Below, piece by piece: positions 37,063 to 54,284 of a DNA stretch of 64,000 nt. How positions within the stretch are numbered: the first letter of the stretch is position 1; each line of letters begins with the position of its first letter. The DNA is taken from the NCBI GenBank assembly GCA_017547655.1, contig JAFYPF010000027.1, positions 9,356 through 73,355 on the forward strand, read 5' to 3'. The notes beneath the pieces are model-generated. The model was not told the DNA's origin. It ran no database searches and saw only the letters and a list, made by a program, of their open reading frames with translations. Made by a program: the position numbers and the translations under genes. Source of the DNA: Clostridia bacterium (lineage in GTDB: Bacteria; Bacillota; Clostridia; Oscillospirales; CAG-272).

Positions 37063-40000
37063 ATGAAAAGATCTAACAGACTGTTGGCATTTATTCTTTT
37101 TGTATGCATGGTAATATCGCTTGTGCCTCCGTTGCAAGTAGCTCGTGCCGCTGACATTATTCAGCGATATGAGCTTGATACGGACGGTATTGACGTGGGA
37201 GCTACGTATTTGATTGTCAATACGGGCTCGACCGGAAGCGGTAACGCGTTGCGTTTTTATTACAACAGCTCATTATCGCGCGATTTCCGTAATCAAACGA
37301 TTACTGTAAAGGATGATGCGGGAGTTAAATACATAGAAACTGGATTTACCAATGAGAGTGATTGCGTATTTACTTTTAGCGCAGCTAAAGTTGGATATAT
37401 AACGCATAACAATTACTATATTGACTTGAGCAATAGTAGATATGCGACAAGTAAACCGGGAGAAAGCTTGAACTTTACAAGCGTGGGTGACGGTGCATAT
37501 CGTATTTACTATTCGTCGTATTGGAGTTCTTACTATCTTCGTTATTCCAACTCGGATTGGGCGAGATCAACGACTTCTTCTACGGTATATCTTTACAAGC
37601 TGACAGAATATGTTGTAGGTCATGACGTTGAATACAACGGAAACGGCTATACTGCGGGTACACTCCCTCAAAATGAATATTACATAGACAGCGGAAGCGA
37701 ATACACAGTAAAAGCTCCGAGCGAGGGCTTTAAAATGGATGTTGGCGAAGATACGTATCTTTTCCGTTGTTGGAATACAAAGGCTGACGGTTCGGGTGTT
37801 GAATATGAGCCGGGAGAGAAGTTTACTGTTGAAAGCGACGTTGTATTGTATGCGCAGTGGTATCAACAAACAAAGCATACGGCTTCGTTTATTTCGCATT
37901 ACAACGGTGTTCAGACTGACCTTAATGATATCATCGGAGAGGACAAGAACTTTTATATTCTTCTTGATGGTGTAGAGGGCGCGTATATTCCGCTTATAAA
38001 GAGAGGCGACGGTGTATATAGCGCAAAGGTTGTTGACAATGGAATTTATGTTGTCTACGCCAAGAATGCTGACGGAAAATATGAAGAGGTGCACGGCCAC
38101 AAGATTGCGATTTATAATTTTGACGGCACGACAGACTGTTTCCATTACAGCGTTTCGTATAATACAAACGGAGGTGTTTGGGCTGATGGAGAAAATCCCG
38201 GAGATGTAATTCATCATTCTGGAGAATCGGCATTTGTTACAAATGCCACACCTACTCTTAAAGGCAACTTGTTTATGGGTTGGGAAGATAAGGACGGAAA
38301 CCTTTATGCTCCCGGACAACATCTCACGTCTGCTATAGATGAAAAGATTGAGCTTACAGCAAAGTGGCAAGAGACTATTGATATTACGGTAAACGTTGTT
38401 ATAAATCATAATGCTGTTACTACAGGCTCGGATAATAATAATAAGAGACATGAACTTTCTTTCACGTTGACTCGTGAAGAGAACGGCGTGAATATGCCGA
38501 TTGAGAATAAGGTTTTGGATTCGGGATACGTTTATGACGCCGAGAATAATACAACTACATACACTGTTGTATATACCGATATGCCTCAAGGAACATATCA
38601 CGTGTCAAGTGCGAAGAGTTCGTATGAGACTGTGATTACTCACGAGGGCAAGTCCGATGATGATCAGACAATTTTTATCAATCATACTTTTGCTCCTGAA
38701 AATTTTGACCTTTACTTTGATGTGATTGTTAAGGCTGACGACGAGGGCGAAAAGACATTGATGCCCGATAAGGTTAATGTTAAGGTTAGCTATTGGGGTT
38801 ACAACGAGGACAATGTTCTTGACTGGCATATTATTACACAGCAGGACGGAACAAAAGCGCCTATATCCGTTGAAATTGATGAAAACGGCAAGGGAGTAGG
38901 TTATTACCCTGTATGGGGCTTCTGGTCGGGCACTGATTATGCTTATGACTACAGAATTGAGATTACGTCATATGTTTTGCCCGACGGCTCTATTGTTCCT
39001 GTTAATAGTAAAGATAAGATTAACTTTTATATTGACGGCACAAACTTGTACACTGCTGTGATAACAATTGAGTCCGCAACCGAAAACGGGGAAGAGGGCA
39101 GAATTCCTACGTATCCCGCAGATAGTAAAACTGACCTCAATGGCGCATATGTTGGCAGCGGTGTTCAGATAGGCTTGCCTACGGCTACGATTGAAATCAA
39201 TTCTTATAAGGTTACATTCGATGCAGGCGAAGGAAGTGTTAACGGCAGCTCAAAGGTAGTACTTAATAACCAATACGTATGTCCCGATTTAGATAAATAT
39301 GTTGCAACTCCTTCAGCTGATGATAAGACGTTTATTTGTTGGGTTGACGCAGAAGGCGAGCCCGTTACGAATATGAACGGTCAGTTCCTGAATTCTGACG
39401 TAACCTACTATGCAAGATACAACGATGACGCCGTTGTTTCGGGTAAGGTTGTAGTAGACGTACAGTATGATTATAACGGAGAAACAGCAACCATTCACGA
39501 AATTGACCGTGTTAATAAGGTTATGGTTATTCTTCAGAAGAAGATTAACGATTACTACAACGACGTTGATTCAATGATTGTAAACATTGTATACAACAAA
39601 GACGAAAACGGCAATGTTCTTGACGGCGTTGGCGAATATAAGTTCGAAGACGTTCTTAATGACGGAACCGAATATAGAGTAAACGTTTTCGCGTATAACT
39701 TTACGACAACTTATGACAATGATGCTGACGGTGAATATTCCGAAGAGCAGTATGTAGTTGATATAGACCAATTCAGAGCCGAGGGAAAAGTTGATGTAGA
39801 ACTTGGTTTTGCGCCCGACAGCTATCAGCAGTATGTTCGCGTAGACGCTTCTCTTATTGAGGAATCATTGCGTCCAACGGCTGTTTTGGTTCGGTATTAT
39901 TACAGAGACCTTGGCGACGTTCACAACTTTCAAATTATTTCTCAGCACACAGTATCTCCTAACGGAGTAATGGTTTCTCTTGATAAGAGTACTGCTCAAG

Positions 40001-52559: not shown

Positions 52560-54284
52560 TTATTTATTCTGATATTGCTCAAGACTGTCGTTGTAAATTT
52601 TGTAGATTCGATTACTGATATTTAATACACTTGGACGGTGAGTGGTTATTATACATGTACGGTTGCTTTGGCTGTTAATGATATTTTGTAAGACCTTGTT
52701 TTCCGTTTCCATATCTAATGCGCTTGTTGTTTCGTCCATTAGAAGTATTGGGGATTTCGTGAGAAGAGCTCTTGCGATACAAAGACGTTGAATCTGTCCT
52801 TCGGAAAATCCTTTTCCTTGCTCTTTTATAAGAGTATCAATCTTTTGAGGGAGATTATTTACAAACTCGTCTGCACAAGCAATTTTTAATGATTCATAGA
52901 TTTCATCGTCGGTTGCGTTGGGGTTGGTCATTGTTAGGTTTTCTTTTATGGTTCCGCTAAACACAGTATTATCCTGTGGAACGTATGCAAAAAGGGTTCT
53001 CGTGCAAGGAGAAATATCAATTTTGTCACCGTCGGGCGAATACAGCATAAGCGAGCCGTTTTGTTGATGAACAATACCTAAAAGCAACCTGAGAAGTGTA
53101 GTTTTTCCTTCTCCGGACGGGCCGATGATTGCAACTATTTCTCCGCCTTTAGCCTCGAAGTTTACGTTTGACAAGACTGAAACGCCGTTTTCGTAACGGT
53201 ACGAAAGGTTATCAGCTTTAATGGATAAAGATGAATTTTTGTTTTTTTCAATAAAGTTCTTTGCTGCTTCCTCGTTGCATTTGTTTTCTAGCGGTAAATC
53301 CATAATAGCCATTATTCGTCCGGCTGATGTTGCGGCGTTGATAGCTACGGGAATAAGTCCCGTAAGCGCCGAGAAACCTGAAGAAAGAGCGGTGGAAAGA
53401 TTAAGGAAGAGAGCCATTGTACCATAGGTGATTGCTCCCGAACGGAGTCTGTATATGCTCCAAGCAAAGCACAGAACAGCAACTATAGTACCTATAAGTG
53501 AGGTCATTAGTCTTTTTTCTATAGAGAATTTATTGTATCTTAAGGTTGTTTCTTTATATTCGTTTTGCAGAGCTTTATGACGTTCGCTGTATGCATCTGT
53601 GCGATTAAAGGATTTTATGAGTTGTATGTTTTGGAATGTTTCTTCATTGAATACCATCATTTTACTGCTGATCTGGCGCATGGTTTGGTTGTGTTCGCGC
53701 ATCATTTTTATAAAATATCGGCTCATAAGAACGGTTGCGGGTGCGCTGATGAGCGCTAAAAGCGCAAGCGTAGGATCATAGTAAAGAATTAAACAAAGAG
53801 TACCGCCGAATTGCAGTAGTCGGGTGAATAACTCGGGGAACCAACCGATTACACTTGAAGAGATAGTTGATACGTCACCCGTAATACGGGTTAAAAGGTC
53901 ACCCGAATGATATGAAGAAAGTGCTTCCCAATCTGTTGCAAGAAGCTTATCATATACTTTGGCGGTTATTTCCTGGTTGACCTTTATGCTTACCTTTGCA
54001 TTTATCCTTGAGGAAATCGCTTGCATAAGTATCTGTAAAAGCTGCATCAGCACGAAAAAAATTAAAGCTACAAGTATACTATCTGTATGCGAACCTGTAA
54101 CGTTGTCGATGATTTTTTTGCTGATTATACTTGCAATTAAGCTGTAGGCAGTGCTTAATATACCGATAATCAGATATAAAAATATATCTTTCTTATAACT
54201 CTTACTATATTGACTTAACCAGATATATTCATTTTTCATTTCTTTTACGGATTTTGATTTGATTAAATTAAACTTTATTTTCAT
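52560..54284 (-). CDS. ABC exporter with fused permease and ATPase
   Basis: 6-TM domain; GPSGEGKTT, YVPQ, signature FSEGQ, LLMDE, THR. Confidence 0.9.
   Translation of the reverse strand: MKIKFNLIKSKSVKEMKNEYIWLSQYSKSYKKDIFLYLIIGILSTAYSLIASIISKKIIDNVTGSHTDSILVALIFFVLMQLLQILMQAISSRINAKVSIKVNQEITAKVYDKLLATDWEALSSYHSGDLLTRITGDVSTISSSVIGWFPELFTRLLQFGGTLCLILYYDPTLALLALISAPATVLMSRYFIKMMREHNQTMRQISSKMMVFNEETFQNIQLIKSFNRTDAYSERHKALQNEYKETTLRYNKFSIEKRLMTSLIGTIVAVLCFAWSIYRLRSGAITYGTMALFLNLSTALSSGFSALTGLIPVAINAATSAGRIMAIMDLPLENKCNEEAAKNFIEKNKNSSLSIKADNLSYRYENGVSVLSNVNFEAKGGEIVAIIGPSGEGKTTLLRLLLGIVHQQNGSLMLYSPDGDKIDISPCTRTLFAYVPQDNTVFSGTIKENLTMTNPNATDDEIYESLKIACADEFVNNLPQKIDTLIKEQGKGFSEGQIQRLCIARALLTKSPILLMDETTSALDMETENKVLQNIINSQSNRTCIITTHRPSVLNISNRIYKIYNDSLEQYQNK

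Follow-up and report, generated by a model that had tools for sequence, protein, structure and literature searches.

Linear polyphosphorylated peptide (LPP) clusters of Bacillota, described by Popov et al. (Nat Commun 2026; PMC13381572), share a core of five genes, which encode a RiPP recognition element (RRE), an HprK-like kinase, a SipW-like (archaeal-type) leader peptidase, a PF14907 NTP transferase, and an exporter of the MsbA-like type. Their precursors (35-200 amino acids [aa]) have variable cores and a conserved N-terminus with YxxPx[L/V/I], which is part of the leader motif YxxPxVLxHQxIxFETxxS, and LppK polyphosphorylates Ser3 of the core. The clusters are reported inside capsule loci of Bacilli, with a patchy distribution and a role given as unknown (PMC13381572). 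In paeninodin-type lasso peptide tailoring (PadeK, ThcoK, and PsmK/PsmN), an HprK-like kinase phosphorylates the C-terminal Ser of the linear precursor, which is extremely conserved in clusters with such a kinase, and in the pseudomycoidin cluster, a PF14907-type transferase adds hexoses to the phosphorylated Ser (PMC9266682). Statements on published systems refer, here and below, to the parts of each paper that were covered.

Here, we describe a block of 11 genes (17.8 kb) in a 64,000-nucleotide (nt) stretch of a gut Clostridia genome (GenBank assembly GCA_017547655.1, contig JAFYPF010000027.1, positions 9,356 to 73,355). The whole stretch is referred to as the window, and positions count from its first letter; the host assembly is 1.39 Mb and 84.6% complete. 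Taken as a whole, the explanation that we consider probable is that the block is a horizontally mobile accessory envelope island, in which an LPP-like, radical-SAM-modified phosphopeptide is combined with a tethered giant adhesin and specialized capsule regulators. A first-pass annotation of this DNA had stated that no characterized pathway has this composition; this no longer stands, since the kinase/RRE/exporter core with a YxxP leader among capsule genes was published in 2026 as LPP (PMC13381572). The finding is real and belongs to a family now in print, not to an undescribed kind of system. New beyond LPP are the radical SAM/SPASM enzyme, the precursors of 81-151 aa, nearly all ending in Ser, the predicted docking of the giant protein to an anchor, and a split kinase pair.

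Gene content, limits, and recurrence of the island

The open reading frame (ORF) list of the window places ten genes on the + strand and a convergent ABC exporter gene on the - strand (Table 1). Genes in the block are separated by 1-47 bases or overlap, with stop/start overlaps at 48093 (RRE stop and pseudokinase start) and 49583. The layout in the first-pass annotation, comprising ten + strand genes, the convergent exporter, a promoter-like site, and a shared terminator, was confirmed position by position. Its view that the genes form one unit was borne out by the stop/start overlaps, by the behavior of the block as an island, and by its conservation as a block.

The limits of the island emerge from comparison with a genome of the same genus (G304, stretch L077), in which both flanks are collinear and window positions 36653-54423 are absent by blastn. 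Positions 1-7701 of L077 correspond to window 62122-54424 at 82% nucleotide identity, and positions 7749-10881 correspond to window 36652-33520 at 84%. Only 47 bases separate the two matches; the junction sequences were read, and the terminator of the pyruvate formate-lyase (PFL) activase gene leads directly to the promoter region of a spore-protein gene. These matches define a presence/absence difference that takes in the eleven genes with their outer control regions and nothing else.

The flanks are housekeeping genes, as the first-pass annotation had it, with PFL and its activase upstream and NFACT/RqcH and AddB downstream (family scan). AddB and NFACT, which are encoded in the flank, share 86-89% identity with their G304 counterparts, 68-75% with those of G049, and only 29-39% with those of three Faecousia/Vescimonas genomes. 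The island proteins are closest to Faecousia and Vescimonas loci, at 41-70% identity. Diverged flanks together with similar island proteins would fit transfer of the whole block between families, with the caveat that proteins differ in evolutionary rate. No integrase or transposase was seen among the eleven island ORFs.

With the radical SAM protein as seed and one genome per species, we assembled 49 loci and counted homologs in them by ORF blastp. The HprK-like gene is present in all 49 loci and the PqqD gene in 45. The ABC exporter has homologs in 33 loci, the anchor-like protein in 32, and the giant-like protein in 28, and a kinase module (the Ig-like protein plus at least one Wzz-kinase) is found in 24. 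The ten + strand genes occur in 18/49 loci, and all eleven genes in the order of the window occur in 16/49. Because 16 loci share this order and a same-genus genome shows clean presence/absence, the arrangement exceeds chance. The block is carried by many gut species, and related sets are found in cultured Intestinibacter bartlettii DSM 16795, Terrisporobacter muris DSM 29186, Anaerostipes butyraticus JCM 17466, and Fusibacillus kribbianus.

Some loci depart from the pattern of one set per locus. Two pairs of radical SAM and kinase-like genes are present in each of L025, L030, L041, and L049, and L030 encodes two different precursors, of 88 and 132 aa; the paired sets suggest duplicated or stacked pathways. 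Sets of radical SAM, PqqD, and kinase-like genes also appear outside Clostridia, in a Phocaeicola (Bacteroidota) assembly (L046) and a Thomasclavelia metagenome-assembled genome (L045), possibly through assembly contamination. In another family of the order, a four-gene kinase module (L063, 3371-13368) lies 2.4 kb upstream of PFL and activase genes whose products are 71% and 45% identical, respectively, to those of the window; the neighbors are the same as in the window, in opposite order.

The first-pass annotation assigned one promoter to the ten-gene row. The site upstream of the row matches 11 of 12 consensus positions, and the region shows no excess of promoter-like sites (48 versus 56.5 ± 7.5 in shuffles). 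Since an equally good site lies within the row, at 45424, a single promoter is plausible only. A terminator-like hairpin (36671-36698) lies 3' of the PFL activase gene; a signal scan of the region found no strong internal terminator that would split the modules, in line with the earlier annotation. Beyond the exporter, the island is bordered by a gene for an alpha/beta-type small acid-soluble spore protein (54540-54740, + strand; Pfam SASP, E = 3.6e-31), which in the sister genome comes directly after the PFL-activase terminator. Among public read sets, window 44600-52600 is covered in whole or in part by four DNA runs from 2 studies, one of which runs may be the source, with no RNA run listed.

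Table 1. Features of the island and the signals around it (window coordinates)
Feature	Position	Strand	Basis or remark
Accessory island limits	36653-54423	.	blastn vs same-genus genome
Promoter-like site TTGACA-17-TAGAAT	36855-36883	+	11/12 consensus matches only; upstream of ten-gene row
Giant secreted protein	37063-44625 (ORF opens TTG 37006)	+	2520 aa from ATG
Predicted docking helix, last 26 residues of giant protein	44545-44622	+	Complex prediction
84-aa precursor peptide	44637-44891	+	Conserved leader, four Cys, C-terminal Ser
HprK-like P-loop kinase (putative)	44939-45793	+	Counterpart of LppK/PadeK; sub-threshold family matches
Radical SAM/SPASM peptide maturase (putative)	45739-46899	+	Pfam, CNMDCKMC motif
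Stalked membrane protein (predicted anchor)	46896-47825	+	Sequence reading, structure model
Discrete PqqD-type RRE, 88 aa	47830-48096	+	Pfam PqqD; stop overlaps next start
Wzz (PCP) + BY-kinase-like fusion, putative pseudokinase with GY tail	48093-49586	+	Pfam/NCBIfam, motifs
CpsB/CapC-type PHP tyrosine phosphatase	49583-50311	+	CpsB_CapC, E = 1.4e-61
Membrane protein with Bact_surface_Ig-like domains	50271-51149	+	Pfam, E = 1.8e-14
Wzz (PCP) + BY-kinase fusion, motifs intact	51151-52506	+	Pfam/NCBIfam, motifs
18-pair hairpin with A and T runs, shared terminator	52517-52557	.	Between convergent genes
MsbA-like ABC exporter without peptidase domain	52560-54284	-	Pfam/NCBIfam; counterpart of LppD
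Promoter-like site upstream of exporter gene	54321-54349	-	10/12 consensus matches only

The peptide pathway

The 84-aa precursor has no family match in Pfam or NCBIfam. It starts with M-K-x-x-Y-x-K-P-x-L-x-V-E-x-F-S-L-x-Q-S and ends with C-Y-N-N-P-S-E-G-N-Y-I-F-R-S; the precursor alignment (27 rows, one empty and one partial) shows a YxKPxL-type leader, four conserved Cys, and an invariant CYNNP..F.S end. A scan for the leader motif returned 34 distinct ORFs of 81-151 aa, all but one of which (33/34) have a C-terminal Ser; the exception, in L040, ends in HSF. For comparison, 38 of the 371 other annotated ORFs of the same loci end in Ser, a count that includes up to 25 of these peptides. The leader-bearing ORFs that were inspected lie directly upstream of a kinase-like gene, and their cores are very divergent and unrelated between lineages. 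Candidates for the peptide picked by eye in L056, L057, and L062 likewise end in Ser.

The RRE is a clear PqqD protein (Pfam, E = 1.1e-13, 51.7 bits versus a cutoff of 23.4), and its best NCBIfam matches are lasso PqqD models (E = 1.2e-07). Lasso-type RREs bind the motif Y-x-x-P-x-[L/V/I]. In the mechanism that we propose, the PqqD element would hold the precursor through its YxKPxL leader.

The kinase-like protein was labeled HprK-like in the first-pass annotation, and the label is weakly supported. NCBIfam matches to ScmC (E = 7.9e-08) and HprK_rel_B (E = 1.1e-05) fall far below cutoff. A profile of 37 homologs ranked HPr kinases first in the PDB, but with weak E values of 0.008-0.04, and a single-sequence PDB search gave no match below an E value of 0.5. 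Residues H135, S152, G155, K156, T158, and N173-G174-D175 are invariant in the family. By analogy with paeninodin, the kinase would phosphorylate Ser, most likely the C-terminal one.

The radical SAM protein is recognized by Pfam (Radical_SAM, E = 9.1e-24) and has a CNMDCKMC (CxxxCxxC) motif and a Cys-rich C-terminal part. It aligns over its full length, below threshold, with GeoRSP, ACGX, MftC, PapB, and DynA, and the NCBIfam cutoff of no named maturase family was reached. We propose that this enzyme would cross-link the Cys-bearing core; its presence argues that the product is probably not merely linear. Export would fall to the ABC pump (Pfam ABC_membrane, E = 5e-38; ABC_tran, E = 8.7e-28), whose best NCBIfam match is MsbA (E = 2.4e-79, below cutoff). 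Among the eleven ORFs, family scans turned up neither a peptidase nor an immunity-like gene, and the pump is not of the peptidase-containing kind. The evidence does not point to an antibiotic role for the peptide, in agreement with the first-pass annotation, and the product may serve surface or biofilm architecture instead.

Genes that recall LPP clusters occur around some related loci and elsewhere in the host. A Peptidase_S24-like (S24/SipW-like) gene is present in L035 and L061, with a weaker match in L060 (E = 0.0034), and L057 has a SipW-like ORF recognized by alignment only. In the window itself, the stretch 11355-12083 (- strand) holds a second 88-aa PqqD gene, whose product is 38% identical to that of the island, and then a 151-aa ORF with the SipW-like motifs SM.P, HR, and GD and no Pfam match at E 0.01. 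This is the RRE/signal-peptidase pair that marks LPP clusters, and no kinase or precursor gene was seen beside it. We considered the SipW-like gene, 25 kb off, as the source of a leader peptidase for the island and rejected it. An 81% identical copy is present in the island-free sister genome, and the gene is therefore not part of the island; the same query was not found in two of the three Faecousia/Vescimonas genomes that carry the cassette. The island could nevertheless have co-opted this peptidase. The low-GC stretch (0.37) around the second PqqD gene also contains genes for a DUF4432 protein (12563-13534, - strand; E = 1.3e-76) and for a 443-aa membrane protein with a weak Colicin_V match (9980-11311, + strand). 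On another contig of this genome, a lone 236-aa HprK-like ORF (C24:35483-36193), 33% identical to the island kinase over residues 126-282, adjoins a 681-aa membrane protein; the 14 kb listed around it contains no RRE or radical SAM gene.

A terminal Ser that may be phosphorylated invites a different explanation, whose idea of a primer or anchor was raised in the first-pass annotation, and in which the exported phosphopeptide is a covalent primer or anchor of a glycopolymer, the phospho-Ser being extended with sugars or serving as an LCP acceptor, and the Wzz-kinase pair sets polymer length. We regard this as unlikely. In its favor, the C-terminal Ser is nearly invariant; PF14907 genes are found in L035, L040, and L067; and the cassette ends with an LCP ligase gene in L035 and L038 and has one beside it in L060 and L061. 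We know of no peptide-primed capsule, however, and family scans of the island found no glycosyltransferase, PF14907, LCP, Wzx, or Wzy gene. The genome has a single PF14907 match, which belongs to a different contig (C27) and lies 3 kb away from a Bac_transf gene. The published record points both ways: the pseudomycoidin transferase puts hexoses on just such a Ser (PMC9266682), and the LPP authors suggest that neighboring polysaccharide genes might modify the peptide, while deletion of LppN was without effect in their heterologous system (PMC13381572).

Kinase module, giant protein, and rival explanations

Both Wzz fusions of the island carry an AAA_31/eps_fam kinase domain (Pfam/NCBIfam). The Wzz scores of the first and second proteins are 28.5 and 27.6 bits versus a cutoff of 25.5, and the second reaches 112.2 bits versus 108.05 for eps_fam. 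The second protein has NEGKST, DCD, and DTPP, with Walker A, A', and B intact, and 3 Tyr without a cluster in its last 45 residues. The first has NEGTST, in which the Walker A Lys is gone, and DCC instead of DxD, and it retains 13 Tyr among its final 45 residues; the pseudokinase proposed in the first-pass annotation holds on the first two of these counts, and the protein reads as a pseudokinase and phospho-acceptor.

This division of motifs recurs. We aligned 81 sequences, restricted to kinase-like ORFs of more than 380 aa. Within the window, as in every one of the 18 loci that share its gene order, the first paralog has EG[TV] for EGK, no DxD, and 10-14 Tyr in the last 45 residues, and the second has GENEGKST, DCD, and DTPP and only 1-3 Tyr. 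Other lineages have GEGK[ST] in both paralogs and Tyr tails in most. With an active kinase that lacks the tail and a dead paralog that carries it, phosphorylation would have to run in trans, from the tail-less kinase to the Tyr tail of its partner. In such a pair, the catalytic and acceptor roles of a bacterial tyrosine kinase would have been separated naturally into two paralogs.

Polysaccharide assembly by loci in other parts of the genome is presumably what the module tunes. Family scans found no sugar genes (Wzx/Wzy locus) in the island; elsewhere in the genome, Bac_transf genes are present on C27 and C24, Polysacc_synt genes on C24, C14, and C27, and LCP genes on C10 and C21. A second, split kinase and CpsB pair lies at C20:87305-88785. 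No capsule locus was seen beside it: the ten upstream ORFs scanned are metabolic, and the contig ends 2 kb downstream.

The link between the peptide and kinase gene sets proposed in the first-pass annotation is not refuted by the search of other genomes, in which both sets are found together. They are contiguous in at least five gene orders. That of the window runs giant, peptide, kinase-like, radical SAM, anchor, RRE, pseudokinase, CpsB, Ig, kinase, and the pump gene is convergent to it. In Lachnospiraceae (L025, L035, L038, and L040), the order is peptide, kinase-like, radical SAM, RRE, pump, CpsB, Ig, kinase, kinase. In L057, from a different species of the genus to which the window belongs, the row is Ig, kinase, kinase, pump, RRE, radical SAM, peptide, kinase-like, peptidase, CpsB, so that the peptide genes lie between the kinases and CpsB. 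L056 has Ig, kinase, kinase, RRE, radical SAM, peptide-like ORF, kinase-like, pump, and in L041, the kinases are flanked by two peptide sets. Kinase-linked loci are spread over several clades of the radical SAM tree, which was built by a quick method with SH-aLRT support.

In a reverse search of 401 genomes of the order, 20 had a match to the Ig-like protein. Stretches from 17 of these were fetched, leaving out the window's own genome (G000) and two (G008 and G256) in which the match falls inside ORFs of 902-1450 aa; in 15 of the 17, the Ig-like gene adjoins both kinases. Neighbors of the module include CapD-like (L059, L064, and L070), DegT (L066 and L069), and LCP (L060 and L061) genes. This placement in polysaccharide loci indicates that the four-gene module is the order's usual capsule regulator, repeatedly adjoined by peptide clusters. 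The link is thus real but facultative in both directions. The earlier proposal of a single surface assembly pathway gains from co-occurrence in several gene orders and loses from this facultative character, with the kinase module in 24/49 peptide loci and the peptide genes at 3/15 kinase modules. Three of the kinase modules without a radical SAM gene (L060, L061, and L067) have an MsbA-like pump beside a Peptidase_S24-like or PF14907 gene; LPP-type clusters without a radical SAM enzyme may adjoin the kinase module in Clostridia too.

Interleaving of peptide and kinase genes, including the stop/start overlaps at 48093 and 49583, would also be expected if the modified peptide were an exported autocrine or quorum signal, sensed by the Wzz-kinase or Ig-like ectodomains and setting Tyr phosphorylation and the display of capsule or adhesin. 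The pairing recurs in several gene orders, and the sensor-like proteins have extracellular parts. However, at 81-151 aa the precursors are long, their cores vary widely among loci with related kinase ectodomains, about half of the peptide loci lack the kinase module, and family scans found no transcription factor encoded in the island. BY-kinases are not known to be ligand gated. We judge this the least probable of the explanations considered.

The facultative link is also what would be seen if three unrelated modules merely traveled together: a bacteriocin-like antimicrobial, an ordinary adhesin, and kinases that regulate a capsule locus elsewhere. Antimicrobial peptide clusters usually comprise a radical SAM/SPASM enzyme together with an RRE and an ABC pump. 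Each module also occurs without the others: the peptide core alone (e.g., L033, L039, and L042-L049), the peptide with adhesin and anchor but no kinases (L001, L002, L008, L027, and L029-L032), and the kinase module alone in polysaccharide loci (L059, L064, L066, L069, and L070). Yet the adjacency is kept in at least five rearranged orders across several families, beyond chance, and a module carried by 20/401 genomes of the order stands beside the peptide genes in 24/49 loci. Within the island, the radical SAM and RRE genes have the anchor gene between them, the start of the pseudokinase gene overlaps the RRE stop, and the immunity-like gene and peptidase-containing pump that an antimicrobial might bring were not found by family scans. 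Related LPP and paeninodin clusters are likewise tied to capsule loci (PMC13381572). We give fortuitous co-travel a low probability; like the primer and the signal, it is rated below the accessory envelope island.

The adhesin part of that island would consist of the giant protein and the stalked protein. The giant protein carries a signal peptide and Flg_new repeats as well as a vWA-like stretch, and its C-terminal region is rich in beta structure. Its vWA label in the first-pass annotation holds in part, in that the DxSxS motif is visible and the match (24.8 bits) falls short of the cutoff of 27. The C-terminal 789 aa were modeled with a pLDDT (predicted local distance difference test) score of 75.1; a fold search with this region returned generic jelly-roll/cupin folds only, with a template modeling (TM) score of at most 0.13, and no sortase signal was seen at the C-terminus on reading the sequence. 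The stalked protein has a membrane helix at its N-terminus, a linker rich in Ser, Thr, and Pro, and an ectodomain of tandem beta-sandwiches. The ectodomain model (pLDDT 89.3) has two beta-sandwiches, for which the fold search found generic tandem beta-sandwiches (best E = 8.9e-4; TM at most 0.28), and Atlas neighbors of the protein fall in "hypothetical" clusters only.

Complex prediction of the stalked ectodomain with the last 572 residues of the giant protein gave a score of 0.77, compared with 0.00 for the best of three controls. Of 80 solved complexes, 58 reach this mark, as do 2 of 110 mismatched pairs; this calibration is approximate here, as own alignments were used. Three runs agree in at least 46% of contacts, with a partner pLDDT of at least 78, and the confident contacts are all in the last helix of the giant protein (residues 764-789 of P0001). 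Homologs of the giant and stalked proteins are found together in L025 (Lachnoclostridium), in L027 and L029-L032 (Peptostreptococcaceae and one Clostridium), and in Oscillospiraceae, and four of six distant giants end in an acidic linker and a short amphipathic helix. The last helix is thus predicted to dock into the stalked protein, and the models support binding. The Sec-secreted, 2520-aa protein would then be tethered to the cell noncovalently through the stalked ectodomain, a candidate sortase-independent tether for a giant surface protein in Gram-positive gut bacteria.

A bolder version, which we think improbable, would make the island a self-contained display system: the cross-linked, phosphorylated mini-protein would be the acceptor or primer of a kinase-controlled glycopolymer, shown together with an adhesin clasped at its C-terminal helix by a new receptor, and the kit would move as one block between families of gut Clostridia. 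The mini-protein would then be a structural part of the envelope, not an antibiotic, and the stalked protein a previously unrecognized adhesin receptor.

Several observations weigh against the accessory envelope island as we propose it. In the peptide pathway, the HprK assignment draws on weak scores (ScmC against a cutoff of 125 bits; a PDB match with an E value of 0.008 at best), the SPASM match of the maturase is 1.4 bits short (20.1 versus 21.5), the four conserved Cys could be mere disulfides formed after export, and two of the five LPP core genes, the leader peptidase (SpI-like) and PF14907, are missing from the island. The docking of the giant protein is a model confidence, not a measurement. 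As to the unity of the island, the rival promoter-like site at 45424, inside the kinase-like gene, matches 11 of 12 positions, and the kinase module is missing from 25/49 peptide loci, in 11 of which at least 5 kb was read on both sides. Conversely, 12 of the 15 kinase modules lack HprK-like and radical SAM genes in the fetched stretch, and seven lie among polysaccharide genes (neighbor scan, 20 ORFs, 10 loci). Shared regulation or mobility could explain such adjacency without a shared pathway.

Comparison with known systems

The closest relatives of the peptide genes are the LPP clusters. The island shares with them a discrete PqqD element, an HprK-like kinase, an MsbA-like exporter, and a YxxP leader, known here from the genes alone, and thus holds three of the five LPP core genes, with the kinase counted on its weak assignment; the remaining two are carried by some related loci. 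Long precursors with variable cores, a position among capsule genes, and a patchy distribution are further points of likeness. The differences are several. The island has a radical SAM/SPASM enzyme, and the word "radical" does not occur in the main text of the LPP paper, although its supplementary tables may list such clusters (PMC13381572). Its host belongs to gut Clostridia, and "Clostridi" is likewise absent from that main text. The conserved Ser is the last residue of the island precursors and residue 3 of the LPP core. After YxKPx[LMF], xxExF is conserved and the window precursor continues with FSLxQSxARDC, which differs from the HQxIxFETxxS of the LPP leader (PMC13381572). No paper that links radical SAM enzymes with either HprK/RRE clusters or BY-kinases came up in the literature, within a few searches that did not extend to supplementary files.

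LPP clusters sit in capsule loci (PMC13381572), whereas the island is joined to capsule regulators only, plus the adhesin/anchor pair; the adjacency to capsule regulators has its parallel in the placement reported for the LPP and paeninodin clusters of Bacilli. Why phosphorylated peptides sit in capsule loci is left open in the LPP and paeninodin papers. The island makes this question more testable, as its peptide genes are stripped of sugar genes and welded to the regulators alone with an adhesin and its anchor. It also adds a radical SAM branch, with substrates of 81-151 aa, to the LPP-like family.

With paeninodin-type lasso clusters, the island has in common an HprK-like kinase, a C-terminal Ser, a discrete PqqD-type RRE, and a [Y/W]xxP leader (PMC9266682). 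Of the His-Lys-Asp-Asp kinase motif published there, only the His, the Lys, and one Asp (that of N-G-D) are invariant in the island family. No macrolactam synthetase or B2 transglutaminase-like peptidase was found among the eleven ORFs at E values up to 0.01, which argues that the product is not a lasso peptide.

NCBIfam also holds two uncharacterized cassettes, SynChlorMet (ScmC/D/E/F) and GeoRSP, which we compared by model names only. They resemble the island in combining HprK-like proteins (ScmC and HprK_rel_B) and a PqqD relative with radical SAM/SPASM enzymes; models of these cassettes are the best matches of the kinase-like protein and are in the top five for the radical SAM protein. The scores, 32 versus a cutoff of 125 bits and 76 versus 400 bits, place the island outside both.

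Radical SAM/SPASM enzymes also cross-link larger proteins, as CrpC does CrpA and QhpD does QhpC (PMC13692751). A leader-like N-terminus, a long Cys-bearing substrate, and RRE-assisted recognition are points of likeness. In CrpC, the RRE is fused to the enzyme and the substrates are very Cys-rich repeats, whereas the island has a discrete RRE and four conserved Cys. Kinase, exporter, adhesin, and capsule genes are not reported with CrpC/QhpD in the parts of the paper covered (PMC13692751).

The kinase module resembles CpsB/CpsC/CpsD (CapA/CapB) in its PHP phosphatase, Wzz-type domain, Walker A/A'/B motifs of a BY-kinase, and Tyr cluster. Unlike that system, it has Wzz and kinase fused, two paralogs of the fusion, an additional Ig-like membrane protein, and no adjoining sugar genes. 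In a narrow literature search, we found no description of a kinase pair that divides catalysis and acceptor tail. Kinase-like proteins without catalytic and/or Tyr residues are on record, such as the BY pseudokinase EcpK (PMC12004946); EcpK lacks both the catalytic residues and the Tyr cluster, whereas the island divides the two between its paralogs.

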